Source: Gammaproteobacteria bacterium
GTDB taxonomy: Bacteria; Pseudomonadota; Gammaproteobacteria; UBA4575
Length of the DNA stretch: 64,000 bases
Assembly: GCA_965247265.1 (NCBI GenBank)
Contig: OZ252002.1
Location: 1,882,964 to 1,946,963, forward strand
Direction of reading: 5' to 3'
Shown here one piece after another: positions 5,880-38,575 of the stretch (within the stretch, counting starts at the first letter, position 1; each line of letters begins with the position of its first letter). Both the position numbers and the translations under genes were made by a program. The notes under the pieces are model-generated. The model was not told where the DNA came from and did no database searches. It worked only from the letters and a program-made list of their open reading frames with translations.

Positions 5880-5887
5880 TTGAATTT

Positions 5888-13632: not shown

Positions 13633-13662
13633 GCTTGTTCTCCGAAGTTAGGAGTTAATAAT

Positions 13663-13926: not shown

Positions 13927-14235
13927 AGTATCCCCCGATGTTTATAAATAGATGAACATGTTCTTATGTTTAGTGTATATAACAACATTTTTTTCTAATG
14001 TAGTACTTATCTAAATGTAGGTAATTACTGCTAAATTTGATGTTAGTTAGAGTATTTATATAATAAATTCTTTTATATTCAGATATTAACAATAAATACT
14101 TAAATTTTTACCTTATTATTTTAATCCTACAGCTGCCAAAAGCATGTCTGTGATGAGGTGGAATATCTATGATAAATCAGAATCATAAGTATACTTAGTC
14201 GTTAAGGTTGTTGGGTTCTTAAAATAAAAATAAAA

Positions 14236-14580
14236 ATGCAATTAGCAAATTTCAAACGACTGCGTGTCTTAATCCCTTTAGTATTTGTCACAGTACTTAT
14301 AGTCGTTTCAGTTGTCGTATTTCATCCTTCGTTTCAAAGGAAAATGCTACTCGATTATGTCGTACCACATGTCAGTGCACTGAGTTTTGACCTCGTCCAC
14401 ATCACACCCTGGTCGATGGATATCGAAAATTTAGCCATCGAGTATGAAGGTGGTCACTTCCAAATTGGAAAGGGTGCAATCAGATATTGTGGTTTGGTGA
14501 TAAAGGGCAAGCAAAAGAGCACAGCCAATAATTTTGATTATTCAGACAAATATAAGAACGTTATAAAAACTACCATATAA
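14236..14580 (+). CDS. hypothetical membrane-anchored protein
   Basis: 114 aa with an N-terminal TM helix. No recognisable domain. Confidence 0.3.
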   Translation: MQLANFKRLRVLIPLVFVTVLIVVSVVVFHPSFQRKMLLDYVVPHVSALSFDLVHITPWSMDIENLAIEYEGGHFQIGKGAIRYCGLVIKGKQKSTANNFDYSDKYKNVIKTTI

Positions 14581-14585
14581 GCATA

Positions 14586-15864
14586 ATGAACAAACCACTT
14601 TTAAAAGGGTACGGACTATCTATATTGCTCATTGCTGCGGGTTTTATACTTGCGTATCAATTTGTCGAACCTGCGCCGCCCAATCAATTAATTATGGCTA
14701 CTGGGAGCAAAACAGGTGCCTATCATAGTTTTGGCTTGGCGTTACAAAAAGTGCTTGCAGAAGATGGCATTGAACTGGAGTTGCGAAATTCTGATGGCAG
14801 TATGGAAAATGCAATGTTCATTGCAGATGGGACTGTCGATATATCAATCATTCAGGGTGGAACGCCTTTGTCTAAAATCGATAGAGGTGAAGAAATTCGA
14901 TCGCTTGGTAGTCTTTATTATGAGCCGATGTGGTTGTTTCACAAAATCAATCCACCACCACAAACCTTGCAACAGTTATCTCGTTTTCGAGTAAACAAAG
15001 GTAAAGAAGGGAGTGGAACGCTCCAACTCGTTAATGAGTTACCTAATCTGAATGATATGACCGAAGATAAGTTTTCTATGCTTGGTAATGCAGAGGCAAG
15101 TGAAGCGCTTGTAGCAGGAAAGTTAGATGCTGCATTCATAGTAAGCGGGGAAAAGTCTAAAGATGTTCAGAAGTTATTTGCAGCCAAAGATGTTGCAATT
15201 ATGGATTTTCCTCGTGCTGAAGCCTACCATTTACATCGCCGATATTTGTCAGTCCTTAAGTTACCGCCTGGTGGAATTGACATGGCAGATAATCGACCAG
15301 CTTTTGAACGCAGTCTAATTGCTGTGACTGCAGTTCTTGTTGCGCATGAAGATTTACATCCTGCGTTGGTAGATTTATTGCTGATGGCATCAAAGCGTAT
15401 TGTGGATAAACCCTGGCTTGTTTAACAAAAAAGGCCAATTTCCTTCTGGTAAATACCTATCTATTCCATTAGATAAAGATGCGGAACGAATTCATAAACG
15501 TGGACCATCATTTTTGCAACGCTATCTCCCATTTTGGGCGGCCACATTAGTGGATAGAATGATACTTATGCTAGTACCATTGATAGCAATTGTATTCCCT
15601 TTATTTAAAATTTTTCCACCTGTCTATCGTTGGCGAGTACGGTCACGTATTTATCGTTGGTATGCAGACTTGAAAAATATTGAAGTGAGACTCAATAAAG
15701 AAGAGTCAAGCAAAGATTTAATTAATGCAATTCAAGAACTCGAAAGCGAAGTCAAGCAGGTTGAAACACCATTATCTTATTCTGATGAGCTTTATCATTT
15801 GCGCAGTCATATTGACTTGGTATATGCGCGCATTAAAGAACGCGATGAGACTGGATACTTATAA
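14586..15864 (+). pseudogene. TAXI-family (TRAP-associated) periplasmic solute-binding protein with a C-terminal TM/coiled-coil extension, frameshifted
   Basis: ORF 14586-15425 has a TAXI-like body. ORF 15400-15864 in another frame continues with the conserved ...PGLFNKKGQFPSGKYLSIPLDKDAERIHKRGPSFLQRYLPFWAA... region and a TM helix. The two frames overlap by 26 nt. Confidence 0.55.
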
Positions 15865-16288
15865 GAATCTATTGAAATTAAAGTATTTAAAGTATAAAAA
15901 TAGTGTCTAGTAAAAATATTTTTTACTGCAGCATAAAACAAACAACATTTTTAAAGGATAAAACATGAGAACGTTGTTCACATTTAGCATTATTACTTTG
16001 ATGCTTATTACTGGCACTGCAATTGCTGAGAAAAAGCTTACACAAAAAGGTGCTGCAACCACTCACAGTCAGGTGAGCGATTGGTTGCTGCTAGTGAAGA
16101 ACGGTCAAATGCTAAAATCAAGGTAGGCGAGGGTGGTGAAGCATACAAAGGAACGCTTGACTATTGGTCTATAATAATAAGCAATCGGCTTTCAACTCAC
16201 GCTAAATAAGCATTTCAAAAACTATAAATATTATCCTCGTACGTATATTATGGCATACGAGGATTCATAAATTATTGAGAAATATCGT

Positions 16289-16781
16289 ATGAGAATATTA
16301 ATTTTATTATCTATGTCTGCGTTTTTATTTAGTTATGCAATAGTATCTGTAGCGCAAGATTTTTTCGTCTACCCATCAAAAGGCCAGTCATCGGAGCAAA
16401 CCGAAAAAGATAAATTTGAATGTTACGGTTGGGCCAAAAATGAAACCGGATTTGATCCAATTCAAACACCGACTGCAACTCGACCGCCTCCGCAAAAAGA
16501 GCAAGAAAAAGTAGGTGCTGCAGGCGGTGCTGTTGGCGGTGCAATAGTGGGCGGAGCGATAAGCGGCCTACTAGGTGGTGATGTTGAAGCCGGTGCAGCA
16601 GCAGGTGCTGTTGGAGGCGGTTTATTTGGCGGCGTGCGTAGAAGCGGACCAAAAAAAACGTGAGGCAGCGGCCCAACAACAATGGGAACAGGAACAAATG
16701 CAAAAATATGCGGGCGGACGAAATGCCTACAATCGTGCCTATGTCGCATGTTTAGAAGCACGTGGTTACTCGGTAAAATAG
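16289..16781 (+). CDS. Glycine-zipper family secreted/lipoprotein, reading frame broken at an A8 homopolymer
   Basis: Signal peptide, then FECYGWAKNETGFDP, then a Gly/Ala zipper (GAAGGAVGGAIVGGAISGLLGG...). The frame shifts at aaaaaaaa (16651-16658). The second frame ends ...NAYNRAYVACLEARGYSVK, which is typical of the family. Confidence 0.6.
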
Positions 16782-16793
16782 CAGGAGAAAAAT

Positions 16794-17177
16794 ATGAATA
16801 TGTCAATACGAATTTTAATAATATTGATGTTGATACTCAATACAACATTGATCCATGCCAATGAAATTGACTCCTCAAAACCTTTAGTCTGTGCAATAGT
16901 AGAAGTTATAGATTGTGGCGTGAAGGGTGATTGCGAACCGGTTGATCCCGAATTTGTAAATTTACCCAATATTTTTAAAGTCGATACGGAAAGTAAAGTA
17001 CTGCACAGTGGAGAACGCAAAACAAAAATTGATCATGTCACAAAAAATAAACAGGTAACCAGTGATGATAACAAAGCATGGTCTTTTGTGTTGTCTAACA
17101 ATACAGGCAAATTTACAGGTGCCATAGCTGCCTATGATTATGGCTTTCTCTTATTTGGATCATGCATCGTTGATTAA
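16794..17177 (+). CDS. hypothetical secreted protein
   Basis: 127 aa, signal peptide, four Cys residues. No recognisable family. Confidence 0.35.
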   Translation: MNMSIRILIILMLILNTTLIHANEIDSSKPLVCAIVEVIDCGVKGDCEPVDPEFVNLPNIFKVDTESKVLHSGERKTKIDHVTKNKQVTSDDNKAWSFVLSNNTGKFTGAIAAYDYGFLLFGSCIVD

Positions 17178-17323
17178 TTAGATTTTTAGATCACTAGCTC
17201 ATTGACCTTGAAGGTTGTTAATTTTATGTATGATGAGAGATTTTAATACTTACAGTTCATATATTTTTTACTCATTCAAATTTTGAGCTCCATGCATGAA
17301 ACATTCGTTTCCAGTATGCGTTT

Positions 17324-18510
17324 ATGCATAAAACACTTCTAATACTATTAATTTCAATACTTTGTTCGGCATGTGCAAGTATTAGTCGTGGCATTACTGA
17401 AGGCGTACTTAGTAGTAAAAATCAGGACTTAGTGGATGAGCGCGAATGCAATATACGCGGAACTAAATTTGATGGTCTCGATTCATCTTTTAATACACAA
17501 GGGAAAAGCCCTACATTAAAAGTATTAATGGTGCATGGTATTGGTGAGCATCTTCCCGGGTATTCAACCCGCATGGCTGAAAATTTAGCAACAGCCTTAA
17601 ATTTAAATGTTGGGAGCGCACGTTTTAAAGAAATTGACATAGTAGCAGGCCGATTTCCAAATGAAAATCTTGGAAAATTACGTATTGACCGTTACATAAA
17701 TCAGGAAGAGTCACAAGAAATGCTCTTTTATGAGCTGACTTGGTCGCCAATTGCTAAAAAAGAGAAAGATATTCTTGCCTATGATAACTCTGGTGAACAT
17801 TCGTTTCGTCGTGCCAACATTAACAACATCATGAAACCTTATATGAACAGTCATGTATCGGATCCACTTATTTATCTTGGTGCATCGCAAGAAAAAATAC
17901 AGGTATCTGTCATTACTTCAATATGCTGGATGATGAGCCGCGACTGGAAAGAAATCGATGAACATACACAAGGGCGGTGTGTAGCCGAACACACCAAATA
18001 TAATAAAGTATTAGATGATGAATTTGCTTTTATTACTCACAGCATGGGGAGTCGAATCGTCACAGATTCTTTTCAGGCGCTAATTCAGTACTTAGATAAT
18101 GAATTACAAACCAATTGCCGCTATTACAACTTGGCCGTGATAATCCTGAAGTGACCAATCAACATGAGGAATATTGTATGTCGGATGGAGAAAATTATGA
18201 CAAACGTTTCTTCAAAGAACTTACCGTTGTGGCATTTAGTGACCCGAATGACATAGTAAGTTATGACGTGCCACCCAAATTTGTTGATGAATATATGGAT
18301 TCCAGGCTATGCGTGAACTTAATTAACATCACAATAAATATCGCGCACGTAAAAGAACTTTTTGGATTAGGCTCATTCGCTAACCCATGTTTCGCACATC
18401 GACAATATGATAATGATGAGCGGGTAGTCGGAATTATTTCACACGGGCTACACGATCAGAATATTGCAGCTGTAGTAAAAGAACGCTGCGAATATCAAGA
18501 AACGAGATAA
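17324..18510 (+). pseudogene. Lipoprotein alpha/beta-hydrolase (lipase-like, GxSxG = THSMGS), frameshifted
   Basis: ORF 17324-18154 has a lipobox LCSAC and the nucleophile elbow ITHSMGSRIV. ORF 18115-18510 in a different frame carries candidate Asp and His catalytic residues (DPNDIV, HGLHD). Confidence 0.5.
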
Positions 18511-18718
18511 ATATATTTAACTTTATATAAGTAATATAACAATTTGTAATTAATACATGTTCTATTAATCAATCAATCATTGAGGCAAATTAGACACATC
18601 ATGTATCTAAAATGGATGACGCAACAATAACGTTTAATTTGCTAAAGTCAAAACATTAGCTGTTGCTAATATATGATTTTGTAATTTCCTAGCATTATTT
18701 CTATTTGGAGCTGTTGAT

Positions 18719-19333
18719 ATGTCTAGTGCACCCGAATCAATTTCCCCTAATTCCTGCGACATGGAAGCCTTAAATCAATGGTTTGATGAACGATTAGAGC
18801 AAAAGCTGCAGGAACGAGACGAAGCAAAAATTCCGCAACTTTCATTGATTGTCACAAAAGGCACAATGGATATGGCGTATCCGCCCTTTATTCTGGCTTC
18901 AACCGCTGCAGCGTTAGATTGGGAAGTATCCTGTTTTTTTACCTTCTATGGCTTAAATTTACTTAAGAAAAACCTTGATCTAGAAATTTCCCCACTGGGT
19001 AATCCTGCTATGCCAATGAAAATGCCATTTGGACCTGATTGGTTTCAGAACATTAAATGGGATATACCGAATGCGTTAAGCAGCAATATCCCAGGATTTG
19101 AAAAATTTGCGACCACAATGATGAAGCAAACGCTTAAAAACAAGGGTGTGGCAAGTGTTCAGGAGTTACGCGAGCTAAGCGTTGAAGCCGATGTAAAACT
19201 CATCGCTTGTCAAATGACGGTAGATTTATTCGGTTATAGTAAAGATGAGTTTATTGATGATGTGTCTGAATGGGTAGGTGCAGCTTCATTTTTACCTGCC
19301 GCTCAAAAGTCTGATATCTGCTTGTTCATTTGA
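18719..19333 (+). CDS. DsrE/DsrF-like (DsrE2-type) sulfur-transfer family protein
   Basis: 204 aa. Motifs TMDMAYPPFILASTAAA, FFTFYGLNLLKK and conserved Cys in IACQMTVDLFG match the DsrE2 family signature (FFTFWGL...C-x-M). Confidence 0.6.
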   Translation: MSSAPESISPNSCDMEALNQWFDERLEQKLQERDEAKIPQLSLIVTKGTMDMAYPPFILASTAAALDWEVSCFFTFYGLNLLKKNLDLEISPLGNPAMPMKMPFGPDWFQNIKWDIPNALSSNIPGFEKFATTMMKQTLKNKGVASVQELRELSVEADVKLIACQMTVDLFGYSKDEFIDDVSEWVGAASFLPAAQKSDICLFI

Positions 19334-19893
19334 ACAAAGTATTTTTTTCTATTTGTTGCGCACTGTTTTTGTGTTCATTGGTCCATGGAGAAGATATTGA
19401 TGAGCAACTCTTTGCTAGTAAAGACGCCACGCAACACCTTGCTCGCCAACTAAGAAGCAAGCTGATAAGCAGCTTAGAAGAAAGTGGTGCGGTTAATTCA
19501 ATCAGTGTATGCAATACAGAAGCTTTTAAAATATCAGCGGAGTTGTCTAAAAAATATAACGGCAAGGTCAGCCGCACTTCATTAAAAATTCGCAATCCAG
19601 AGAATAAACCCGATACTTGGGAACGTAACACGCTATTAGAATTTGAAAATCAGAAACAAGCAGGTACCGATACTTCTCAATTAGAATCATATAAGGTCAT
19701 TAAAAATGATAACGGAAAATGGTTTCGCTATTTGAAAGCCATTCCAACCGGTGATGTGTGTTTAATGTGTCATGGTGAGCATATTGCACCGGATGTTGAA
19801 GATAAAATAAAGACTTTATATCCAAATGATTTAGCAACAGGTTATGAAGTAGGGGACATTCGCGGTGCGTTTACCATCAAGCTACGCATGTAA
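19330..19893 (+). CDS. Secreted c-type haem protein, DUF3365 (Tll0287-like PAS-fold) family
   Basis: 187 aa. Signal peptide and a single C-terminal CLMCHG haem-binding motif, as in DUF3365 proteins. Confidence 0.6.
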   Translation: MNKVFFSICCALFLCSLVHGEDIDEQLFASKDATQHLARQLRSKLISSLEESGAVNSISVCNTEAFKISAELSKKYNGKVSRTSLKIRNPENKPDTWERNTLLEFENQKQAGTDTSQLESYKVIKNDNGKWFRYLKAIPTGDVCLMCHGEHIAPDVEDKIKTLYPNDLATGYEVGDIRGAFTIKLRM

Positions 19894-19963: not shown

Positions 19964-21247
19964 TTATCCAAACATTTCTGCAGTCATGTTGTTAAACCAG
20001 CTGTAAGCATAGTGCACTTCTCGCTTACGTGCTTCTGCTGACGCATCTGCTGGAGTAAGTCCTCCACCGAGTTTCTCAATCGCTGAACGATCACCTTTAA
20101 GCTTGTACACCGCAACAACGGATATGCCGTAATCAGGTGCAATTATGCTGTAACAAGCATTTGCATAGGATGGTGTTGGTGGCTCTTTGCCGTTTAACAT
20201 ACTCACAACGGCTGCTGCACAAACTTTCGCTTCTGTACTGGCAGCATAACCCGATTTTGGAAGACCAGTTGCAATACTTGCATCACCGATAACATGAATA
20301 CCTTTATGTTTTTTGGATTCAAATGTTCCAAGATCAACTGGACACCAACCCGAATCATCAGTAAGGCCTGCATCGATAGCAATTTGCGCTGCATTTTGTG
20401 GTGGAATGATATTGGCAACTGCTACTTTATAGTCATCAAAATCTGTGCTGACCGTCATATCTTTTGTATTTACACGTTTAACACCACCACCCGTATCTGC
20501 GCCGGCAACCCATTCAATCATGTCCCCATAAACATCTTTATAGCCTTGCATGAACAATCCTTGCTTAGAAAATTTATCTTTTGCATCAAGGATCATAATT
20601 TTTGATTTAGGCTTGTTGTGTTTCAAATAATGTGCAATTAGTGCAGCACGCTCATAGGGTCCTGGAGGACAGCGGAATGGATTTCCTGGTGGAGCTAAAA
20701 CGACTAGGCCTCCATCATCCATAGCTTCGAGCTGACTTCGCAACAATGCAGTTTGTGCACCAGCAATCCATGCATGAGGCATAACTTCAGAAGCTGCTTC
20801 ATCATAACCTTCAATTGCACCCCACTTGAATGCAATACCAGGTGACATTACTAAACGGTCATATTCAAGCGTAGTACCACCGGCAGTGGTTATTTTTTTG
20901 CTTTCTGCATCAATGGCTGTGGCTTTGTCTTGTACAAGCTTAATACCATGATCTGCAAGTTTATCGTAGCCAAATTTGATGGTTGAAATATCGCGATCAC
21001 CACCAATTACTTCATTACTCATAAAGCATGTATGATGATGTGCTTCTGATTCTACGATTGTCACTTCTGTAGAAGAATCTCCCTTAGCAATATACTTCGC
21101 GGCAATCATTCCACCTACACCACCACCAATTACAACGACACGATGTTTTGCTGCACAGGCGATATGTGGGAAACCAAGACCTACAGTAGTAGCGGCAAAA
21201 CTACTGCCCGTAACTTTTAAAAATTCTCTTCTTGTAACTTTCGACAT
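19964..21247 (-). CDS. fccB: Flavocytochrome c sulfide dehydrogenase, flavoprotein subunit
   Basis: 427 aa. Tat signal RREFLK. FAD dinucleotide-binding motif VVVIGGGVGGMIAAKYI. Lies directly upstream of a dihaem cytochrome gene. Confidence 0.85.
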   Translation of the reverse strand: MSKVTRREFLKVTGSSFAATTVGLGFPHIACAAKHRVVVIGGGVGGMIAAKYIAKGDSSTEVTIVESEAHHHTCFMSNEVIGGDRDISTIKFGYDKLADHGIKLVQDKATAIDAESKKITTAGGTTLEYDRLVMSPGIAFKWGAIEGYDEAASEVMPHAWIAGAQTALLRSQLEAMDDGGLVVLAPPGNPFRCPPGPYERAALIAHYLKHNKPKSKIMILDAKDKFSKQGLFMQGYKDVYGDMIEWVAGADTGGGVKRVNTKDMTVSTDFDDYKVAVANIIPPQNAAQIAIDAGLTDDSGWCPVDLGTFESKKHKGIHVIGDASIATGLPKSGYAASTEAKVCAAAVVSMLNGKEPPTPSYANACYSIIAPDYGISVVAVYKLKGDRSAIEKLGGGLTPADASAEARKREVHYAYSWFNNMTAEMFG

Positions 21248-21277: not shown

Positions 21278-21943
21278 TCAATTTTGATTGCCATAGAACT
21301 GAATTAAATCAACAGTAGCCCCTTCTTTATGTGCCTCATGCATTTCTTCCATTTTCTTTTTCATCTTCTTAGGCATGGCTCTGTTACCATCGAAATAATC
21401 AGCCATGGTGTAGTCTAGATAGGGCAGCCATTGACCTGCTAAAACACCTGCATCGTCTTCTGCAGATCCTCCACCATCTTCATGGCACTTTTCACAAAAT
21501 TTATCATGTCGTTTTGCGCCGGTTTTTGCTTTACCAGCATCGGCATCTTGATCTGCTGTTTGAAACGGCATTTCAGCAAAGTGTTTAGCAATAAGCTTAA
21601 GTTCTTCTACTGAATAACCCTGTGCAATTCGATTCATTACTGTTGAAAATCTGGGGAAATATTCTACCTCTTCAAGATCTGGATCAGCTTCAATGGCTTC
21701 TTCAGCTTTATCTTCATCGTCACCAAATTTATATGCCAACATTGCGCCAATAATATAAATTTCAGACATTCCAGATATTGTAGGTATTGCTGGTCCTTCG
21801 CTGACCCCGCTTGGTCCATGACAACCCAGGCAGGTGTTTGAAAGCATAGATGGGCTCGCTGTCCCTTCAGCCCATGCAGTATTCAGAGATAATAATCCAA
21901 TTACACTTAATATAAGTGATTGACGGATGAGTTTGTAAAACAT
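21278..21943 (-). CDS. fccA: Flavocytochrome c dihaem cytochrome subunit
   Basis: 221 aa. Signal peptide. Two CXXCH motifs (CLGCHG, CEKCHE). Adjacent to fccB. Confidence 0.7.
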   Translation of the reverse strand: MFYKLIRQSLILSVIGLLSLNTAWAEGTASPSMLSNTCLGCHGPSGVSEGPAIPTISGMSEIYIIGAMLAYKFGDDEDKAEEAIEADPDLEEVEYFPRFSTVMNRIAQGYSVEELKLIAKHFAEMPFQTADQDADAGKAKTGAKRHDKFCEKCHEDGGGSAEDDAGVLAGQWLPYLDYTMADYFDGNRAMPKKMKKKMEEMHEAHKEGATVDLIQFYGNQN

Positions 21944-22056: not shown

Positions 22057-22596
22057 TTACTTTTTAAACGCAACTTCTTCTTCTAAATACGGTTCATCGG
22101 GCTCTTCATGAGCAACACCTTTATGGCAATCGATACAGGTTTTGCCGCTAGTTTCTATTTTTTTGTGTTTTTTGCGTGCTGATCTGTCCTGTTCTTCTAA
22201 ATCCATCGCTGCTACCGTGTGGCAAGACTTGCATTCACGAGAATCCGTAGCTTCCATACGATTCCATACTGCATTCGCCATTTGCCAGCGATGGTCTTCA
22301 AATTTTTCTTCAGTATCGATGGTACCCAGAATTTCATGCCAAACATCTTTTGCAGCGCGAAGTTTTGCATAGAGTTTAGGGCCAAGATTATGCGGCACAT
22401 GACAATCTGAACAATTCGCGCGAACACCTGAAATATTGGAATAGTGGAGGCTTTCCATCCATTCTTGTTTTACCCATTGCATGGAATGGCAAGACGTACA
22501 AAAATCTGTTGAATTAGTGGCTTCCAATGAAAGAGATGATCCTATAGCCGCAGCAAATCCTACAATCAACATCAATACGATAACTATTATTTTCAT
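22057..22596 (-). CDS. NapC/NirT/CymA-family membrane-anchored tetrahaem cytochrome c
   Basis: 179 aa. N-terminal TM helix. Four CXXCH motifs (CTSCHS, CSDCHV, CKSCHT, CIDCHK) with family-typical spacing. Confidence 0.8.
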   Translation of the reverse strand: MKIIVIVLMLIVGFAAAIGSSLSLEATNSTDFCTSCHSMQWVKQEWMESLHYSNISGVRANCSDCHVPHNLGPKLYAKLRAAKDVWHEILGTIDTEEKFEDHRWQMANAVWNRMEATDSRECKSCHTVAAMDLEEQDRSARKKHKKIETSGKTCIDCHKGVAHEEPDEPYLEEEVAFKK

Positions 22597-23033
22597 GGGG
22601 TTTAAATGAAAAATATCTTATATACGATTTAATTATTTAATTATTTAATTTTTTAAATTGGTGATGCTAATCAGTTTGCCTATAACATTAATTGATTGTG
22701 CCACTGCGCGGCAACCATACCAAGCCTTGAAGGAATAAATACCAATGTCGAGGTTGAAAATGGTAGGACGACTTTAATTAATTTACACTTATTTACCAGC
22801 TGAATACGTATGATTACTGCTATGACATCGGCATAAGCAGTAGCTGCATGAATTAGTTTATAATAATATAGATTAATAACATTAAGTAACTAACTGTTAT
22901 ATATATAGATAAAGTATTTGTTATAGGTATAAGTAAATTAACTGGATTAGTATTTATTAATATTATAATATAGTGTAAATAGTGGCCGTCCGCTTACTCC
23001 AGACAATAAAAATCAATCAAAGACCTAATGTAA

Positions 23034-24350
23034 ATGAAACCATTAATAATACTGTTATTCGTAATCGGATTTGGAATCTGGATGATTGCTACAGGGTCTG
23101 CAGATATTTTTTTAACTACCACAGACTCATCTGCTGAAGTCGTCAGTGAGGACAGCAGCAAAGAATCAAGCATTACAGATAATGCTGAGCCTATTCAAGA
23201 AATAGAAAGCTCAACGCTTGAAGAGATTAGCGCTGAGACTTTATTAGTGGCAGAAAATGATGTCATTGAAAATGACTCAGAAAGTATAAATGAAGCTCAA
23301 TATTCTGAAAAAGACACATATAATACTAAAAATACCTTAGCAGAGGATGATTTAGATTCACTGGGTTCTGATACGAGTGAAGTAACTGATGAGCCAACTA
23401 TTGTTGCAGAAGCTAATACTGCTGCAGAAACTACTACAACTGAATCAAACCAAGAATCTTCAGATAGCACGCCATCAACAACAATCCCGCCCACTAATCC
23501 ACATTTGGGTAGTATGTGGATGTCGCCTATGCAAAACCCCATGAATAATTTTTGGATGAATCCAATGTTCAATATGATGATGCAGATGATGGGGCCTATG
23601 ATGAATCCCGCAATGTATATGAATCCCATGAGCATAATGAATCATCCCATTAATGCCATGACCCAAGCGCAAAGCATGGATTACATGATGCGCTCAATGG
23701 ATCCACATTTACTATTTGGAATGTTTGGACAAACAAGTGAAGGCTATAAAAACGGTGAAGTGCCTGACCAACTTCCAGTCGTCACAATCCCCGGATTTCC
23801 TACTCAAACTTATCAAAATTGGCCTAGAAATAAAGTATCTCCTGGTGTTTCGCGCGAAGCTAAGAAAAACGCATTTCAAACAATGATGGGAATAAGCCCG
23901 CTTTCCATGCGAGACATGCTAGGAATAATTACGGATAAAGTTCCTGTTGCGGAAGATGTCACTTGGGATGATGCCGTTGAAGCTATGAAACTTCGCGCCA
24001 ATGAAGTTAATTTTAAATTTGTCGGATCAAGCCCCCTATGGAAAGAAATTGAAGCCGTTACTGGCGAGCCTTCAGCACGAGTTGAGATGTTTCGGTTCTG
24101 TGATGCTGCCGTGGCACGAAAGATTTTAGATGAAATCCCAGAGTTTATTGTGTTTCTTCCCTGCAAAATTGCGTTGATTGAAGATGGAGATGGAAAACTT
24201 TGGGTCATGACACTTGATTGGGATGTGAGTTGGTTGGACTTTGCACAGAATCCGAATAATCATTTAGCAAAGGATTTACGTGAAGACGCAACACGAATTA
24301 GGGAAAACATGCGCTACATTATGGAAGGGGCCGCAACCGGTGACTTTTAG
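23034..24350 (+). CDS. Secreted modular protein: signal/TM, acidic Ser/Thr/Glu-rich linker, Met-rich NPM-repeat segment, C-terminal DUF302 domain
   Basis: 438 aa. The Met-rich block is SMWMSPMQNPMNNFWMNPMFNMMMQMMGPMMNPAMYMNPMSIMNHP...SMDYMMRSMDPH. The C-terminal FRFCDAAVARKILDEIPEFIVFLPCKIALIEDGDGKLWVMTLDWD matches the DUF302 (TT1751-like) motif (CNP..A...LPC..V). Confidence 0.6.
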   Translation: MKPLIILLFVIGFGIWMIATGSADIFLTTTDSSAEVVSEDSSKESSITDNAEPIQEIESSTLEEISAETLLVAENDVIENDSESINEAQYSEKDTYNTKNTLAEDDLDSLGSDTSEVTDEPTIVAEANTAAETTTTESNQESSDSTPSTTIPPTNPHLGSMWMSPMQNPMNNFWMNPMFNMMMQMMGPMMNPAMYMNPMSIMNHPINAMTQAQSMDYMMRSMDPHLLFGMFGQTSEGYKNGEVPDQLPVVTIPGFPTQTYQNWPRNKVSPGVSREAKKNAFQTMMGISPLSMRDMLGIITDKVPVAEDVTWDDAVEAMKLRANEVNFKFVGSSPLWKEIEAVTGEPSARVEMFRFCDAAVARKILDEIPEFIVFLPCKIALIEDGDGKLWVMTLDWDVSWLDFAQNPNNHLAKDLREDATRIRENMRYIMEGAATGDF

Positions 24351-24411
24351 TGAGTGTTATTCATATTCATAAACTTATATTTGAAAACTATACACGACAG
24401 AGGTAATTAAA

Positions 24412-25101
24412 ATGTTCTTACGACAAAAGTTAATCCAATTATTTGCGGGTGCATTGATAATTGTTATTGCAGGTGCCACGAGCTTACAAGCAGAAGATGC
24501 GAGCTCTGCATCTACAGGCATGACACCTGCCATGCAAAAGGCCATGGACCCAAATGTTTGGACAAACATGATGGCAATGATGATGAATCCAGAAAAGGCA
24601 ATGTCTATGGAATCGTGTGCAGAATGTCATGACGGTGAAGATGTGGCGCGCTATCAAAAAGATTTTGGCCCAATGATGGAAGCCATGAAGCCAATGATGA
24701 GTATGATGAATCCTCATATGATGACCTCCATGATGAACCCTATGATGGGCATGATGAACCCTATGATGGGCATGATGAACCCTATGATGGGCATGATGAA
24801 CCCTATGATGGGCATGATGAACCCTATGATGGGTGGCATGATGAACCCTATGATGGGTGGCATGATGAACCCTATGATGGGTGGCATGATGAACCCTATG
24901 ATGGGTGGCATGATGAACCCCATGACCATGATGAACATGATGTATCCGATGATGGGAATGATGGGCCCAATGATGGGAATGGGTGGCATGGGTAATCCAA
25001 TGATGGGTGGCAACCCAATGGGACAAATGATGGACCCTAAACAATATGAGAATTGGTTTAACGAAATGATGAAAGGCTTTACACCACAAGCACAAAAGTA
25101 A
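24412..25101 (+). CDS. Secreted methionine-rich tandem-repeat protein with one CXXCH motif
   Basis: 229 aa. Signal peptide, then SMESCAECHDGEDV (CXXCH), then MMNPMMG x5 and MMNPMMGG x4 repeats. Shares the MDPNVWTNMM and C-terminal QYENWF motifs with the two neighbouring genes. Confidence 0.6.
   Translation: MFLRQKLIQLFAGALIIVIAGATSLQAEDASSASTGMTPAMQKAMDPNVWTNMMAMMMNPEKAMSMESCAECHDGEDVARYQKDFGPMMEAMKPMMSMMNPHMMTSMMNPMMGMMNPMMGMMNPMMGMMNPMMGMMNPMMGGMMNPMMGGMMNPMMGGMMNPMMGGMMNPMTMMNMMYPMMGMMGPMMGMGGMGNPMMGGNPMGQMMDPKQYENWFNEMMKGFTPQAQK
24730..24935 (+). repeat. Intragenic tandem repeat: about five 21-bp units followed by about four 24-bp units
   Basis: atgatgaaccctatgatgggc is repeated about 5 times, then atgatgaaccctatgatgggtggc about 4 times, all in frame. 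Confidence 0.9.
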
Positions 25102-25134
25102 TCAGATAATATTCTCTATCTACTATCAAACAAT

Positions 25135-25650
25135 ATGGGCGTAAAAAAATTACTTACACAAGCAATTTTTGTAGTGCCCATCTTGGCCATTATTACAGTG
25201 CCGGTGATATTGCATTTTAAAAGTCAAAGTACTACGCCAGCAGAGAATAATAATGCTGGCCCAACTTATCAAAACAATCTTTCTACACACAGTTTCACAA
25301 ATACAATTTCTTCTGCTCAGGCATATGATAAATTCGCAATTCCTGAACCATTCTCTGCTGCAAATTCAACTTTAGGGCTGACGTATGCCATGACTAAATC
25401 CATGGATCCGAATACGTGGATGAAGATGATGATGAATATGATGAATCCAGCCATGATGACTCAAATGATGCACCAGATGATGCAAATTCCCACTAAAATG
25501 ATGGTGCCTTTCATGAATAATGGATTCAGTATGGGCCCGGCTATGTTACCGCAATCACATGCGATGGGCTCTGCACCAAATATAATGACCCCTGCACAAT
25601 ATAAAGATTGGTACACAAAGCAACAGAATAAGCTTAACAATGTCAAATAA
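25135..25650 (+). CDS. Secreted methionine-rich protein, paralogous to the two upstream genes
   Basis: 171 aa. N-terminal TM/signal. SMDPNTWMKMMMNMMNPAMMTQMMHQMMQIP block. C-terminal PAQYKDWY resembles PKQYENWF of the preceding gene. Confidence 0.5.
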   Translation: MGVKKLLTQAIFVVPILAIITVPVILHFKSQSTTPAENNNAGPTYQNNLSTHSFTNTISSAQAYDKFAIPEPFSAANSTLGLTYAMTKSMDPNTWMKMMMNMMNPAMMTQMMHQMMQIPTKMMVPFMNNGFSMGPAMLPQSHAMGSAPNIMTPAQYKDWYTKQQNKLNNVK

Positions 25651-25814: not shown

Positions 25815-26960
25815 ATGGAAGAATTGTCTAACCTTCATTTAATCGCCTTACTAGGCTTTGTGATAGCTATGGTGTTTGGCTTTATTGGAAATAAAACCCA
25901 CTTTTGTTCCATGGGAGCGATAAGTGATGTGGTGAATATGGGTTCAAAAGGACGTTTAGGCGCTTGGTTTTTAGCAATAGGCGTCGCAATTTTAGGTGCA
26001 CAGTTTTTGTTCATACGTGGATTGGTAGATCTGAATTCATCAGTTTATCTTGCACCAAATTTATACATATTAAGTTACATCCTTGGTGGAATAATATTTG
26101 GCATCGGAATGACCCTGGCGGCAGGCTGTGGACAGCGCAATTTGGTTAGGCTGGGAGGCGGAAACTTAAAAGCGCTTGTTGTTGTCATTGTTTTAGGTGT
26201 GACCGCATATATGACAATGCGCGGAATTTTGGCAGTGGTACGTTTAAATTGGGTGTATGCCGTGAACTCTGATTTGACTACGTATGGAATTAATGACCAA
26301 GGCTTATTTAGTTCCCTTGGTGCATTATTTAATCTTGAAAATACTAACTTGCTCAGAAAAATTGGTGGATTCTTAATTGCGTTTGGTTTTATTGCCTATG
26401 CATTTAAACAAAAAGAATTTAGATCAAGTGTTGACAATATGCTAGCTGGATTTGTAATTGGTGGATGCGTCATTGCCGCATGGTTTGTAACAGGTTATAT
26501 CGGTCAGGACGACTTTGATCCAGTTACTCCTCAAGGCATGGCATTTATTGGGCCAACGGGTAATACAATAAGCTATTTAATGACATTTACAGGTGCCGAA
26601 ATTAATTTCGGTATCGCCGTTGCAATGGGGATGATTGCAGGTTCATTTTTGTATGCAGCTCTTTCTGGTAACTTCCGTATTGAAACATTCAGCAATAAAT
26701 CTGAAATGGTAAGTCATTTAATTGGTGCGGTATTGATGGGATTTGGTGGTGTACTTTCATTCGGATGCACCATAGGGCAGGGTGTGACGGGAATGTCTAC
26801 GTTAGCAATGGGATCTATTTTAGCGTTGATCTCTATTATTTTTGGATGTGCGCTTACAATGAAGATTCAATACCACATGCTGGACGAGAAGGGATTTACA
26901 GTTGCATTAGTATCTGCACTAAAAGAGTTACTTACACCTTGGAATAAAGAAGCTGCTTAG
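25815..26960 (+). CDS. YeeE/YedE-family sulfur-compound (thiosulfate) transporter
   Basis: 381 aa, polytopic. Two internally repeated halves, each with a conserved Cys-containing G-C-x-x-G region (AAGCGQRN, SFGCTIGQG). Confidence 0.8.
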   Translation: MEELSNLHLIALLGFVIAMVFGFIGNKTHFCSMGAISDVVNMGSKGRLGAWFLAIGVAILGAQFLFIRGLVDLNSSVYLAPNLYILSYILGGIIFGIGMTLAAGCGQRNLVRLGGGNLKALVVVIVLGVTAYMTMRGILAVVRLNWVYAVNSDLTTYGINDQGLFSSLGALFNLENTNLLRKIGGFLIAFGFIAYAFKQKEFRSSVDNMLAGFVIGGCVIAAWFVTGYIGQDDFDPVTPQGMAFIGPTGNTISYLMTFTGAEINFGIAVAMGMIAGSFLYAALSGNFRIETFSNKSEMVSHLIGAVLMGFGGVLSFGCTIGQGVTGMSTLAMGSILALISIIFGCALTMKIQYHMLDEKGFTVALVSALKELLTPWNKEAA

Positions 26961-26987: not shown

Positions 26988-27302
26988 TTATTTTATTTCT
27001 GCTTCGCCGCTGCCTGACTCACCTTTATTGTCTGTCCAGGTGATTTTGACAACATCACCCGCTTTACCACCATCAAATTCAAATGACCAGTAAGGGTTTT
27101 TTGAAATTCCTGTTCCCCAGTCTGCAGAGATAATCACTTCGCCATTTAATTCTGCTTTAACTTCTTTAATAAAATGGGCAGATATTAGCTCACCCGTGTC
27201 TTTGTCTTTTCGACTACCAGATTCCATTTCGTGATACATAATAGTTTTAACAGTTGTCACGCCATCTTTAATTTTTGCTCTAATTTTCATTTCTTCAGCC
27301 AT
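26988..27302 (-). CDS. soxZ: Thiosulfate oxidation carrier protein SoxZ
   Basis: 104 aa. SoxZ-like sequence and size. Lies immediately downstream of soxY. Confidence 0.85.
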   Translation of the reverse strand: MAEEMKIRAKIKDGVTTVKTIMYHEMESGSRKDKDTGELISAHFIKEVKAELNGEVIISADWGTGISKNPYWSFEFDGGKAGDVVKITWTDNKGESGSGEAEIK

Positions 27303-27321: not shown

Positions 27322-27780
27322 TTATACACAACCGCCAGCAGTAACTTTAACAACACTCTTGCTAGCGTATAACTTGCCGTCAGCTTTAACGATGGCAACT
27401 ACATTAGATGTTTCACGCAATTTAATGCGAGTTGATACAAACGGTTTAGATTTTCCATGAAAATAAAATCGTGAAATCCAAGGTCTTGGATTTTTATCTC
27501 CAAATATACTAATCCACTCTACATTCCCTAAATCTGTTGAAACTTTTACCGGTACGGTTGCACCATTTTCAGCGATTTCGGGTGCATCTAGTGTTACATG
27601 CCCATCAAGTAATTCCTGATCGCCTACGAGCCCTTTTAAGGATGCTTCATATTCTGTCTCGTCAAACGCCGCAGAAGGCCATTCTGCGATCGCAACGCGA
27701 GAAAGAATTCCAGTACTTAATGCTGCAAAGAGACTTGTATAAGCACTATGTTGAATAAATTTTCTTCGTGAAATTTTCAT
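27322..27780 (-). CDS. soxY: Thiosulfate oxidation carrier protein SoxY
   Basis: 152 aa. Tat/Sec signal MKISRRKFIQHS. C-terminal ...VTAGGCV with the carrier Cys in a Gly-Gly-Cys context. Confidence 0.8.
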   Translation of the reverse strand: MKISRRKFIQHSAYTSLFAALSTGILSRVAIAEWPSAAFDETEYEASLKGLVGDQELLDGHVTLDAPEIAENGATVPVKVSTDLGNVEWISIFGDKNPRPWISRFYFHGKSKPFVSTRIKLRETSNVVAIVKADGKLYASKSVVKVTAGGCV

Positions 27781-27948: not shown

Positions 27949-28614
27949 CTAAAATTTTGAGGCTAGATCAGATAATGTGTTAATCTCAATATCTGCCATA
28001 AAAGGTAAACGCTCGGGTTTGCGTTCATAACGATTAATCCACACTGAGTAAAACCCATATGCGACTGCTCCAGCAATATCCCATGAATTTGAAGAAATAA
28101 AGCTTATTTTACTGCGTGGTAAAGCCAGTTGTTCTTCTACAAATTCGTAAACTGCAGGGGAGGGCTTATAAGCCTTTATTTGTTCGGTTGAATAAATACC
28201 ATTAAACAAGTGGTCGACCTCAGCATGCTTTAGAGATGTTGCTAATTTCTGCGGGGATCCATTAGATAAAACCGCAGTTACAATTCCTTTGTCTTTAATT
28301 GTTTGCAACGCATCTTTAACGTCTGGATAAGCCGCTAAATTTGCATGTGCCTGGAGAATATTATTTTTGATATTGTCATCTTCTATCCCATATACATCGC
28401 ATGCAAAATCAAGTGCTGACTTTGTAATTTTCCCATAGCTTGTAAATTTGTTCATCAAGCTCAATTGAGAAGAGTATTGGAGACGTTTCGCCCGCCATAG
28501 CTTATATATTACCAACGCATTTTCACCGAGCTGATCGCGATATTCTTCAAAGGGCAAATAGGTATCCAAAACGGCTCCATAGGCATTGAATACGCATGCT
28601 TTTATCTTACTCAC
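27949..28614 (-). CDS. Haloacid dehalogenase type II (HAD superfamily)
   Basis: 221 aa. HAD motifs (N-terminal Asp region, YKPSPAVYE, SSNSWDIAGA). Confidence 0.75.
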   Translation of the reverse strand: MSKIKACVFNAYGAVLDTYLPFEEYRDQLGENALVIYKLWRAKRLQYSSQLSLMNKFTSYGKITKSALDFACDVYGIEDDNIKNNILQAHANLAAYPDVKDALQTIKDKGIVTAVLSNGSPQKLATSLKHAEVDHLFNGIYSTEQIKAYKPSPAVYEFVEEQLALPRSKISFISSNSWDIAGAVAYGFYSVWINRYERKPERLPFMADIEINTLSDLASKF

Positions 28615-29041
28615 TGATTTTCTTTCCTTAGACTGGCACTCACGTATTTACATTAGATTGGAATGCGTGAGAGGTATAAATATTAATATCTGCTAATATT
28701 CTTATTTATTTGTGTTAATTCCCATATTCCTAATGAGATGTACAACTCAACGTGTCGTAATACGTTTATATATTTGCTTTTCTAGCTAACTTGAAATAAG
28801 CATTGATAGGTTCAGGGCAACTATTTGTTTAATCACTAGTAGTATCTTAGAGCTTTTAAAGCTTGGTAAGAATCTCAAATACAGGTTGTAATCGCTAAGG
28901 ATTGATAAAATTTGTAAAGTCACACTAATAGCTGACGCTGTATTAACTTCGCATAATATATATTATGTTAAAATTTAAATATTCACTAATACTAGATTAC
29001 TCGCCTCTTATCCTAAAATATAACATCAGTGGGTTTCTCAC

Positions 29042-29788
29042 TTAGAATTTATATTTAGAACGATATCCTACAGCTACACGAAAACTTGTGTCTGGATAAT
29101 ATATGAAACCAACATTCCATCCATACCCCCAGTCATCACCCTCTACTTTTGAAAAACCTTCTGATACACCAAGTATCGTAGGACCATTTGATATAGCCTG
29201 GCTCAGAGTTGCATCTGCATACTGTGCACTGAACCCTATCCTTATTGATAATGCATCGCTCATCTTATAAGCCAAAAGATGGATTTAAATTGACTGTGAG
29301 CAATTCTGATCAACTGCATGAAAACCGCCCAACCCATTCCCGATTATAATCCGTTTTGAGGCCATATGGAGCCATTACTGCAAAACCGTATTTCAGATTA
29401 TCGGTTGTTAGGTCCGTTACAAAATATAAACTTGGTACAAATAATAATGAGCTACCATCTTTATTACTTCCAGTTCTAGGACTATTTATAATTAGTGGAG
29501 GAAAACATTGTGTAGAGCCCTCATTTGAAAACGACCTTTCCCGTCAACGAAATAGCCGGTAAGTTGAACTTGTGTACCATGTTGTAGCGTAATGCCTGCA
29601 GTATTGTAAAAAGCCATCGACAAGTCATCACCAATTACCCCGAATCCTGCAAAAGCGCGCTCTAAACCTGTTCCACTTTGCTCGCTAATTTGAAATCCAG
29701 CACTATACACGTTTGACGTATTTAAGATTACGATACTTGCAATAAGAAAAATATGCAGTTCCCTCTTAATCAGGCATCTTCGTTTCAT
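29042..29788 (-). pseudogene. FadL/OmpP1-family outer-membrane transporter remnant (N-terminal and internal fragments only)
   Basis: ORF 29492-29788 has a signal peptide plus AGFQISEQSGTGLERAFAGF...FYNTAGI, the FadL N-terminal hatch. ORF 29042-29275 is an internal barrel segment. About 750 nt remain of a roughly 1.3-kb gene, in several frames. Confidence 0.55.
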
Positions 29789-29967
29789 GGCATAATTTTA
29801 ACTATTGGCAAATTTATTTTTATTGTAACGTGAGTATATTTTGTTTTTTAACATATATAACAATGAGTAATATTAAAAATGATATTTATTATGATCTGTT
29901 GTTACTGTGAATTTATTGAGCTAAATATGGTTGCAAATTATAAATTTTATTTTCCTATACACATTTC

Positions 29968-30642
29968 ATGCTAAAGCTGTCAATTATTATCCCTGCGCTT
30001 AATGAAGCGCAATTCTTATCTGAGCATCGTAATTTTTTCAAATCCTTATTAAGAGAAGGCCATGAAATCATAATCGTCGATGCTGGCAGTGTAGATAATT
30101 CTGTCCAGATTGCACGTTCAGTTTTGTGTGAAACATTTATTACAAAAGCCTCTCGTGGCTATCAAATGAATTTTGGCGCCATGAAAAGCAAAAACGACAC
30201 TTTATTATTTTTGCATGCAGATACCCTTCTACCAAAATCTGCCCCAGCTTTAATTTCGAACGCATTGACTCGCAGTGATAAGCACTGGGGTCGTTTTAAT
30301 GTCTCATTCAACAATTCAAGCCTGATATTTAGTGTTGTTGCGTGGTTTATGAATAAACGAAGTTGCCTGACCGGTATTGTCACGGGTGATCATGCTATTT
30401 TTGTTAACCGAGACATTTATAATCGCTGCGGAGGATTTGCAGATATTCCAGTCATGGAAGATATTGATATAAGCACACGTTTAAAAACGTTTTCGATGCC
30501 AATATGTATACAAAACTCAGTTATTACTTCATCTAGAAAGTGGGAAACTCAAGGCTTGATGAGAACAATTATAAAGATGTGGACCTTGAGATTCCTTTAT
30601 TTCTGCGGTATACCAGCGCAAAATATTGAAAAATTATATTAG
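29968..30642 (+). CDS. Family-2 glycosyltransferase of the rSAM/selenodomain-associated transferase 2 type
   Basis: 224 aa. LSIIIPALNEAQFL GT2 N-terminus and DxD-type region. Overlaps the start of a DUF2064 gene, as in the conserved pair. Confidence 0.65.
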   Translation: MLKLSIIIPALNEAQFLSEHRNFFKSLLREGHEIIIVDAGSVDNSVQIARSVLCETFITKASRGYQMNFGAMKSKNDTLLFLHADTLLPKSAPALISNALTRSDKHWGRFNVSFNNSSLIFSVVAWFMNKRSCLTGIVTGDHAIFVNRDIYNRCGGFADIPVMEDIDISTRLKTFSMPICIQNSVITSSRKWETQGLMRTIIKMWTLRFLYFCGIPAQNIEKLY

Positions 30643-38551: not shown

Positions 38552-38575
38552 ACTAGAAATGTATAGTGATTTCTA

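Follow-up and report, generated by a model that had tools for sequence, protein, structure and literature searches.

Three consecutive genes (A, B and C) in a 64,000-nucleotide stretch of gammaproteobacterial contig OZ252002.1, hereafter the window, encode exported Met-rich proteins located among sulfur-oxidation genes. Judging from sequence, they comprise a member of a particular DUF302 subfamily (A), its Met-rich CxxCH partner (B) and a further Met-rich protein (C), the families of B and C having no Pfam or NCBIfam model. Since versions of the set lie beside SoxYZ and YeeE genes in several lineages, it may have a part in the transfer of periplasmic sulfur to the cell interior. We tentatively propose, as a plausible reading, that A-B-C could be a periplasmic accessory module handling zero-valent sulfur on its way from SoxYZ/FccAB to the importer YeeE; the functional support for such a module is guilt by association. 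The features of the locus are listed in Table 1.

Table 1. Features of the Met-rich trio and of its surroundings (positions in the window)
Feature	Residues	Position	Strand	Remarks
DsrE2-like sulfurtransferase		18719-19333	+	Pfam DrsE_2, E 2.7e-48; upstream edge of conserved locus
Tll0287-like protein		19330-19893	+	Pfam Tll0287-like, E 2.6e-25
fccB		19964-21247	-	Pfam
fccA, dihaem cytochrome		21278-21943	-	Pfam
napC/nirT-like tetrahaem cytochrome		22057-22596	-	Pfam; divergent from A
AT-rich intergenic region, napC-like (-) / A (+), divergent		22597-23033		GC 0.28
Conserved motif CATTGTGCCAYTG ... TACCAAG		about 22693-22745		kept in 10 related loci
Putative sigma-70-like promoter site		22938-22966		sequence match
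A		23034-24350	+	438 aa, DUF302 family
A, N-terminal hydrophobic segment	1-23		+	predicted exported or membrane-tethered
A, variable acidic/Ser/Thr linker	24-160		+	
A, Met-rich block	163-232	23520-23729	+	
A, subfamily-specific conserved extension	233-300		+	
A, DUF302 core	about 301-438	23934-24347	+	bounds from exhaustive phmmer search
A, invariant C356	356	24099-24101	+	alignment of homologues
A, invariant C377	377	24162-24164	+	alignment of homologues
B		24412-25101	+	229 aa, secreted, Met-rich
B, signal peptide	1-27	24412-24492	+	classical LQA-ED cleavage site
B, helical N-domain	about 36-105	24517-24726	+	
B, CxxCH	69-73	24616-24630	+	
B, Met/Asn/Pro/Gly repeat	88-208	24673-25035	+	
B, 24-bp DNA tandem repeat		24685-24925	+	
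B, conserved C-terminal helix MDPKQYENWF	204-225	25021-25086	+	
C		25135-25650	+	171 aa, membrane-anchored, Met-rich
C, TM anchor	5-27	25147-25215	+	apparently uncleaved
C, invariant EPF	71-73		+	alignment of C-type proteins
C, Met block	88-150	25396-25584	+	
C, C-terminal PxQYKxWY motif	152-165	25588-25629	+	
YeeE/SoxT-type sulfur transporter		25815-26960	+	Pfam Sulf_transp, E 2.7e-62; directly downstream of A-B-C
soxZ		26988-27302	-	Pfam SoxZ, E 8.9e-36; convergent with yeeE
soxY, periplasmic sulfur carrier		27322-27780	-	Pfam SoxY, E 1.6e-31
Degraded FadL/Toluene_X channel, fragment 2		29042-29275	-	blastp vs L001 FadL, 57% identity
Degraded FadL/Toluene_X outer-membrane channel, fragment 1		29492-29788	-	blastp vs L001 FadL, 66% identity

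The Met-rich trio

A preliminary description of this DNA had presented the three genes as adjacent, co-directional, exported and extremely Met-rich, and our analysis agrees with it in all these respects. When the 76 window ORFs with 110 aa or more are ranked by Met content, A, B and C take the first three places (7.8, 32.3 and 12.9% Met, respectively, the median being 2.44%). Most strongly enriched is one block in each protein, with 31% Met in A, 50% in B and 30% in C; N, P and G are abundant in these blocks, and H, C, D and E are nearly absent. Each of the three proteins has a single N-terminal hydrophobic segment, followed in B by a cleavage site.

The Met-richness of A-B-C is neither a matter of chance nor an assembly artefact. 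The arguments are the many homologue clusters (more than 300 for A, about 207 for B and 35 for C) and the plus frame, which is unbroken in every related locus. Absence of the genes from all related genomes, which according to the preliminary description would have spoken against its interpretation, is not what was found. We discarded a His-rich ORF on the opposite strand (24484-25095), which merely shadows the ATG repeats: antisense ORFs are short, variable and inconsistent in the relatives.

The view that the trio is an apparently undescribed family was supported for B and C, which match no Pfam or NCBIfam model, while the DUF302 domain of A and the haem c motif of B had been overlooked; the NCBIfam search gave no match for A either.

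Protein A

The C-terminus of A matches DUF302 (Pfam PF03625) at residues 342-395, scoring 37.8 bits where 23 are required (E 1.8e-9), and its homologues from the related loci L028 and L022 score similarly. The subfamily of A is small, comprising about 280 clusters at 50% identity in an exhaustive phmmer search. Both Cys motifs are present in all 120 A homologues listed, and the two Cys are missing from some distant DUF302 relatives; a segment with at least 20% Met likewise occurs in 120 of the 120 listed, reaching at least 30% in 117 of them. The subfamily includes fusions of dihaem cytochrome c with DUF302, which tie this domain to periplasmic c-type cytochromes. A resembles other proteins of the DUF302/TT1751-like family (PF03625; 1J3M) in its C-terminal 135 residues, with a score above the Pfam gathering value, but differs from them in the added extension (residues 233-300), the Met-rich block and the long linker, and in that a Met-rich CxxCH protein comes after it in every case. 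With a 32-sequence alignment, AF2 modelled A poorly (mean pLDDT 46). As regards a TT1751-like fold, the profile of A gave a weak match to PDB 1J3M (E 1.3), the PDB sequence searches with A and its profile yielding otherwise low-complexity noise.

Earlier papers report DUF302 genes from sox clusters (PMC5037610, PMC11034169), from an operon with sqr (PMC5061849) and from a module of PDO and rhodanese (PMC6305408). The linkage of DUF302 to YeeE, sox, sqr and PDO genes repeats observations of earlier genome papers, the sox setting being common to A and the DUF302 genes of the Acidithiobacillia and Sulfitobacter sox clusters.

Proteins B and C and other Met-rich families

B is probably a monohaem c-type cytochrome, exported and bearing a haem c motif. 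Like c-type cytochromes, it has a Sec signal and an invariant CxxCH, of which each of the 120 B homologues listed contains exactly one; P47, C69, C72, H73, A79 and G86 are invariant in 40 aligned sequences. Unlike them, it consists of a helical domain of about 70 residues with no match among solved folds, followed by a disordered repeat with 50% Met. In the AF2 model pLDDT was 80-89 for the N-domain and below 50 for residues 117-206, a C-terminal helix being predicted. No cytochrome Pfam model matched B above threshold, only weak matches of B and its relatives to DUF1924 and Cytochrome_C7 being obtained, and comparison of the N-domain with solved structures gave no cytochrome fold. Met-richness is kept in 119 of the 120 B homologues listed, and the length and sequence of the repeat vary freely between relatives. 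The copy number of the 24-bp repeat is the only detail that the assembly could have distorted.

As its sequence indicates, C is a paralogue of B which has lost the haem module. The C-terminal motif is common to both (profile-profile comparison, 97.8%, E 8e-13), and the CxxCH module is kept in 6 of 35 C-type proteins, the C-type ORF of locus L002, for example, retaining CASCH; the 35 C-type clusters retrieved by a profile search all lack Pfam domains. The short motifs from which paralogy of the whole trio had been concluded (SMDPH, AMDPNVWTNMM and SMDPNTWMKMM; PKQYENWF and PAQYKDWY) were all located in the sequences. The conclusion holds for B and C and does not extend to A, a DUF302 protein, whose profile aligns with that of B only over the low-complexity Met block.

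Relatives carry zero to four extra Met-rich ORFs per locus beside A-B. Two Met-rich proteins of Betaproteobacteria, with which a further family (D) aligns (93%, E 3e-7), gave a local Pfam match to UBQLN1 (E 1.3e-10), which may be compositional. The repeats, M-x-(D/N)-P-x-x-(W/M)-x-x-M, do resemble the ubiquilin/STI1 "DP" domains and the SRP54 M domain, but those belong to cytosolic eukaryotic or SRP proteins. A general ubiquilin/STI1 likeness of the Met-rich proteins was rejected, as only the two betaproteobacterial proteins match: the ubiquilin/STI1-like model PF23195 matched neither A, B and C of the window nor family D nor the L035 protein. A betaproteobacterial Met-rich protein and family D, when searched against PDB sequences, returned low-complexity noise only.

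Genomic context

The sulfur-oxidation neighbourhood described earlier (fccAB, a NapC-like gene, yeeE-soxZY) was confirmed by Pfam matches. The YeeE transporter has Cys31, Cys105 and Cys318 in FCS, GCG and GCT contexts, which we take to be the equivalents of the TsuA cysteines. No soxCD was seen near the locus.

As for conservation of the genes as a unit, it is the A-B pair that is kept, being adjacent in 25 of the 25 distinct fetched loci that reach past A (L025 repeats L001, and L027 stops within A). The consensus order is DsrE2-[Tll0287]-FccB/A-NapC, then A-B-[0-4 Met-rich ORFs]-YeeE, then SoxZY. DsrE2 is present in 25 of the 27 tabulated loci, and FccAB with NapC in 24 (23 distinct places, given the repeated locus); Fcc/NapC are absent from L022-L024, where DsrE2-A-B-YeeE-SoxZ(Y) is retained (SoxY was not detected in L023), and from distant lineages. 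YeeE adjoins A-B in most related loci, and TusA is encoded in L028 and L031. In one distant lineage of Gammaproteobacteria, A-B and the genes soxXYZA-tusA-dsrE2-fadL-yeeE are divergently oriented.

At least two other lineages have the DUF302 subfamily of A next to YeeE and to a secreted but unrelated Met-rich repeat protein. Betaproteobacteria of the Polaromonas/Rhodoferax type possess soxYZA(B), then tusA-dsrE2-yeeE-[Met-rich repeat protein]-DUF302-dsrC, the Met-rich partner (405/577 aa) being secreted and built of MxDPK repeats, and in another lineage YeeE-[415-aa Met-rich repeat protein]-DUF302 lies beside DsbD_TM and thioredoxin genes. Such recurrence of unrelated repeats by DUF302 and YeeE in other classes, together with the retention of Met-richness, points to selection on the composition itself.

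Possible role in sulfur import

The proposed module would take over the zero-valent (sulfane) sulfur that SoxYZ and/or FccAB produce in the periplasm and would present it to YeeE, from which the sulfur would be passed on to cytoplasmic DsrE2/TusA. The DUF302 domain of A could be the carrier or catalytic part, and the haem of B could deliver electrons to it or receive them from it; in SoxAX, haem c is able to drive the oxidation that joins sulfur to a cysteine of the carrier. The Met-rich segments, punctuated by DP/NP, may form pliable, uncharged, thioether-lined surfaces holding hydrophobic sulfur chains or rings, or docking partners, and the C-terminal helix MDPKQYEQWF, common to B, B-lite and C, might be a shared docking element. 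We know of no case in which S8 or polysulfide is bound by the thioether groups of Met. The preliminary description had considered interaction with sulfur species as one of several equally open options; the option stands, and equality does not, for the synteny conserved across classes favours sulfur.

In Hyphomicrobium and Paracoccus, sulfur import by SoxT/YeeE-TusA involves SoxS or a DsbA-like thioredoxin as the periplasmic presenter, and SoxYZ-bound sulfur is stated to reach the cytoplasm "by unknown means", with a YeeE-like SoxT as the importer (PMC11582611). The locus described here is similar in having a YeeE with context-conserved Cys beside SoxYZ and DsrE2 (and TusA in L028 and L031), and small exported proteins encoded beside the transporter. 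However, these neighbours are DUF302 and Met-rich proteins, not thioredoxins, and their role as presenter is a proposal.

A more far-reaching and rather doubtful version of the proposal is that the Met-rich DP/NP-repeat proteins are a novel class of periplasmic chaperone or matrix for hydrophobic zero-valent sulfur and, with a cytochrome-coupled DUF302, provide the missing hand-over from SoxYZ/FccAB to YeeE/SoxT. To our knowledge, no DUF302 protein has a known function, and if this version is true, it would give the domain its first one. Binding of sulfur, and not metal, by the Met segments would in turn be a new use of Met-rich low-complexity sequence. The periplasm-to-cytoplasm route in organisms with truncated Sox or flavocytochrome c is an acknowledged gap, for which the locus supplies named, cross-class candidates: one DUF302 subfamily, a Met-rich CxxCH protein and several Met-rich repeat families, physically linked with a YeeE-type importer, DsrE2, TusA and SoxYZ and, as far as we know, never studied. 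The same arrangement in cultivable Betaproteobacteria makes genetics feasible.

Alternative explanations

Binding of Cu(I)/Ag(I) by Met thioethers, which would keep copper away from SoxY and its persulfide reactions or provide it to a periplasmic enzyme, is suggested by the periplasmic location of the proteins and by their dense MxxM, MxM and MM motifs (36 MxxM and 9 MxM in B). Clusters of MxxM and MxM are well known as ligands of Cu(I)/Ag(I); CusA, CusB and Ctr1 contain established sites in which Cu(I) is held by Met only, and SoxAX is reported to be a haem-copper protein. The trio shares with CusF, PcoE/SilE, CopK, the Met-rich insert of CueO and the Mets motifs of Ctr1 the periplasmic or extracellular site and the clustered motifs, and with PcoE/SilE the intrinsic disorder of the Met blocks. 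However, neither A, B and C nor 51 related Met-rich ORFs match any copper family of Pfam or NCBIfam, and their Met blocks lack the His, Asp and Trp which accompany Met in PcoE/SilE, CopB and CusF. Scanning of most window ORFs of at least 110 aa and of about 30 related loci revealed no cop, cus, pco, cue or metal-sensor genes. Moreover, thioethers should be poor competitors for Cu(I) in a periplasm rich in sulfide and persulfide, and the linkage to DUF302, haem and YeeE is left unexplained. Cu(I) buffering or delivery, put forward in the preliminary description, is chemically plausible and has no contextual support (no cop/cus/pco genes among the ORFs and loci scanned); we regard it as unlikely, though as a live alternative. 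Still less probable is a sacrificial redox sink, in which exposed Met would scavenge periplasmic oxidants and be re-reduced by MsrP. The very high content of exposed Met in the periplasm fits it, and the MrpX peptide with YedYZ of perchlorate reducers offers a precedent (PMC5358917). Yet no msrP/msrQ (YedYZ) or Oxidored_molyb genes came to light, either among the scanned ORFs of the window or in those related loci that were inspected, and the haem, DUF302 and YeeE/SoxYZ linkage again has no explanation, so that this alternative seems very improbable.

B, B-lite, C and D might instead be structural proteins of a sulfur-globule envelope or matrix, analogous to SgpA-D of purple sulfur bacteria, and not transfer factors. 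Compared by description, both groups are exported, repetitive, low-complexity and multi-paralogue proteins; signal peptides, repeats, variable paralogue number (here zero to four extra ORFs) and fast change of repeat length are hallmarks of the Sgp families, and a locus encoding FccAB and SoxYZ with no soxCD seen nearby is in line with such a role. But Sgps are Gly/Tyr-rich, whereas the present proteins are dominated by Met, Asn and Pro, and the invariant haem motif of B and the tight operonic pairing with DUF302 and YeeE, not an Sgp feature, would be odd for a pure coat; we hold this role to be improbable. Little likelihood likewise attaches to the simplest possibility, that B does no more than shuttle electrons for FccAB, NapC or Sox and is unrelated to A, the Met stretches being tolerated linkers which arose by ATG slippage and have no binding role. 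It would account for the 24-bp tandem repeat, the freely varying repeats, the predicted disorder and the cytochromes FccA and NapC encoded next door, but not for the near-universal Met-richness of the A and B homologues listed, nor for its recurrence with unrelated repeats by DUF302 and YeeE in other classes.

Other features of the locus

The region upstream of A, described earlier as AT-rich, has a measured GC content of 28%, and its conserved k-mers outnumber those of shuffle controls in 10 related loci. A TGGCAC-containing motif of this region was considered as a sigma-54 promoter and rejected, the -12 element being missing or misordered. The fadL gene, degraded in the window, is intact in L001, where it has the same position, and in L028, where it adjoins yeeE; FadL-type channels, which serve hydrophobic solutes, share clusters with A-B, in keeping with the proposed handling of sulfur.

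Three Exported Methionine-Rich Proteins

The set of A, B and C is real, widely conserved and undescribed. The three ORFs lie exactly where the preliminary description placed them, all on the forward strand, and are full-length when set against homologues. Among the 76 ORFs of the window they rank 1-3 for Met content (A 7.8%, B 32.3%, C 12.9%; median 2.44%), Met reaching 31, 50 and 30%, respectively, within their Met-rich blocks, the remainder of which is rich in Asn, Pro and Gly, with hardly any His, Cys, Asp or Glu. All three are exported proteins: as described earlier, each begins with a signal or transmembrane sequence, which is its single hydrophobic segment. The signal-peptidase site of B is a classical one (LQA|ED); the N-terminal segment of C looks like an uncleaved anchor. 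At the DNA level, the repeat of B is a tandem array of 24-bp units (24685-24925). An antisense ORF (24484-25095, reverse strand, 203 aa, His-rich) spans nearly all of B; we rejected it as a gene, as it mirrors the ATG-rich repeat on the opposite strand, where CAT reads as His. In relatives, the forward frame alone is consistently open over B, antisense equivalents being short and inconsistent.

The preliminary description took the trio for an apparently undescribed family. This does not hold for A, which ends in a DUF302 domain recognised by Pfam (37.8 bits vs a cutoff of 23). The alignment of 32 homologues showed an acidic linker (variable or absent), the Met-rich block and a highly conserved region of 230 residues in which two cysteines, those of FRFC356DA and FLPC377KI, are invariant. 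All 120 A homologues listed have both Cys motifs together with a stretch of at least 20% Met, and in 117 of them the stretch reaches 30%. The AlphaFold2 model of A is poor (mean pLDDT 46). By its architecture, A represents a new variant within DUF302.

As for B and C, neither matched a Pfam or NCBIfam family. The CxxCH haem motif of B had been overlooked. It is formed by residues 69-73 (CAECH); across 40 aligned sequences C69, C72 and H73 never vary, and each of the 120 B homologues listed has a single CxxCH. In the AlphaFold2 model of B, the N-domain is helical and confidently predicted (pLDDT 80-89), the repeat (residues 117-206) is disordered and a conserved helix forms the C-terminus; a search for structural relatives of the N-domain found none. 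B represents a new family of Met-rich CxxCH proteins.

The proposed paralogy of the trio stands for B and C, which have in common a C-terminal MDPKQYEQWF-type motif (hhalign 97.8%, E 8e-13), and fails for A, whose alignment with B is confined to the low-complexity block. Since some C-type proteins (L002; 6/35 clusters) retain the CxxCH module of B, C is a haem-less, membrane-anchored derivative of B. Related genomes also encode B-lite copies, with signal peptide, repeats and C-terminal motif and without the haem site, and a fourth Met-rich family, D (about 200 aa, MNPQxYxNWM repeats). Family D aligns with betaproteobacterial repeats (93%, E 3e-7) and weakly with the B N-domain (79%), which suggests, and does not prove, a common M-x-(D/N)-P-x-x-(W/M) repeat type.

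Conserved Gene Neighborhood

The scan of species-representative genomes yielded 26 loci, all from MAGs of uncultured Gammaproteobacteria/Thiotrichales. A is followed by B in all 25 distinct loci extending past A (L027 stops inside A). The locus order is DsrE2-[Tll0287], then FccB-FccA-NapC on the reverse strand, A-B-[0-4 Met-rich ORFs]-YeeE on the forward strand and SoxZ-SoxY on the reverse strand. The more distant L022-L024 retain DsrE2-A-B-YeeE-SoxZ(Y) but have lost Fcc/NapC, SoxY not being detected in L023; in a GC-rich gammaproteobacterial lineage, soxX-Y-Z-A-tusA-dsrE2-fadL-yeeE is divergent from A-B.

The window has no family D gene; the site that this gene occupies in L001 and 12 other distinct loci corresponds to 28614-29968, where the window is without a long ORF and holds two FadL/Toluene_X fragments. 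The window also lacks a small cytochrome c gene located after yeeE in L001-L005, L010 and L020.

The intergenic region upstream of A is AT-rich, as reported earlier (28% GC). It contains a conserved motif, CATTGTGCCAYTG followed about 12 nt on by TACCAAG (22693-22745), which lies 230-350 nt ahead of A in 10 loci (the window, L003-L005, L010, L011, L015, L018-L020) and may be a regulator site; its identification as a sigma-54 promoter was rejected. In a second clade the element upstream of A is instead sigma-70-like: ATGACA-N17/18-TATACT, at a distance of about 60 nt.

The Wider DUF302 Subfamily

With A residues 205-438 as query, an exhaustive phmmer search gave only 280 representative clusters, including tandem DUF302 proteins, short proteins with a signal peptide, forms extended N-terminally by Met/Pro-rich sequence and natural dihaem cytochrome c-DUF302 fusions (P0323, P0369, P0380). 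Among the fusions, one cluster member is from Cocleimonas. The gene types flanking the fusion in L033, HAD hydrolase and glycosyltransferase-2, also flank the degraded FadL region of the window.

Polaromonas/Rhodoferax-type Betaproteobacteria possess soxYZA(B) next to tusA-dsrE2-yeeE-X-DUF302-dsrC, where X is a secreted protein (405/577 aa) built of MKMADPKMMDSY-type repeats. In another lineage, YeeE-X'-DUF302 adjoins DsbD_TM and thioredoxin genes, X' being a 415-aa MTDPKxMNSMM repeat protein. These proteins (L031, L032, L035) consist nearly throughout of M-x-DPK-M-M repeats, with about 30% Met; those of L031 and L032 have a local match to Pfam UBQLN1, and we treat the ubiquilin/STI1 resemblance as a lead only.

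DUF302 genes have been noted, without explanation, in sox clusters of Acidithiobacillia and Sulfitobacter (PMC5037610, PMC11034169), in the Synechocystis sqr operon (PMC5061849) and in a PDO/rhodanese module of Arthrobacter plasmids (PMC6305408). Our literature search found no paper joining "methionine-rich" with SoxYZ, YeeE, DsrE2, TusA or sulfur globules.

Possible Role

Synteny with YeeE, DsrE2, TusA and SoxYZ extends across classes. The triad of YeeE, a secreted Met-rich protein and the DUF302 subfamily of A recurs with unrelated repeat sequences, and nothing speaks more strongly for selection on Met-richness itself and for its tie to sulfur handling. Sulfur destined for cytoplasmic oxidation enters through YeeE-like SoxT importers; how it passes to them from SoxYZ is not settled in the literature (PMC11582611), and periplasmic sulfur hand-over still awaits an explanation. 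The genomic wiring of A-B-C points to this hand-over. Our tentative proposal, the likeliest of the readings yet not quite an even chance, is that the module would handle zero-valent sulfur between SoxYZ/FccAB and YeeE, with B as the redox partner of A and the Met-rich segments as pliable surfaces, uncharged and lined with thioethers, that would bind hydrophobic sulfur or serve for docking. The FadL-type channels in the same clusters are consistent with hydrophobic cargo.

Cu(I) binding by the Met-rich blocks, raised in the preliminary description, is chemically natural; however, no copper or sensor gene was found among the window ORFs scanned or in any related locus examined, which leaves it without genomic support, and it would not explain the haem, DUF302 and coupling to YeeE. 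We consider it rather unlikely. Structural proteins like Sgp, or an ordinary electron carrier whose linkers are neutral, seem to us decidedly improbable, both to the same degree, and a methionine redox sink, for which no msrPQ gene was found nearby, is the least probable of all.

Other Features of the Window

Splitting of gspE and gspD suggests frameshifts, due to genome erosion or assembly indels; together with the split AAA_13 and carbamoyltransferase genes, it makes some indel error or genome erosion likely. The gene-poor region 12359-18700 has only short ORFs, none with a Pfam match, and 47555-58705 is probably a mobile or defence island.

Coordinates of features in the window and, where a locus is named, in related loci
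Feature	Position	Strand	Remarks
Type II secretion cluster gspC-D-E-F-G-H-I-J	907-9039	-	
gspE	4342-4821; 4737-5879	-	split in two ORFs
gspD	5888-7585; 7632-7997	-	split in two
tRNA gene	9203-9275		
Integrase-core (rve) fragments	9697-10634		after tRNA gene
A	23034-24350	+	438 aa
B	24412-25101	+	229 aa
C	25135-25650	+	171 aa
FadL/Toluene_X outer-membrane channel fragments	29042-29275; 29492-29788	-	intact in relatives, next to family D there
Cytochrome P450 gene adjoining Fur-family regulator	37193-39004	-	about 10 kb off sulfur locus
Phage-type integrases, two	48012-49139; 54993-55985		
AAA_13 gene	49702-51279; 51423-51980		split
DUF2130 gene	within 47555-58705		
Carbamoyltransferase	57311-57853; 57914-58705		split
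Type I restriction R-subunit fragment	63207-63986		beyond the island
Dihaem cytochrome c-DUF302 fusion gene	L033 8001-9212		flanked by HAD hydrolase and glycosyltransferase-2 genes
Secreted Met-rich repeat proteins, 400-580 aa	L031 6660-7877; L032 6144-7877; L035 6672-7919		between yeeE and DUF302 gene

In Hyphomicrobium, a P450 gene also adjoins soxT-tusA (PMC11582611); the parallel may be a coincidence.
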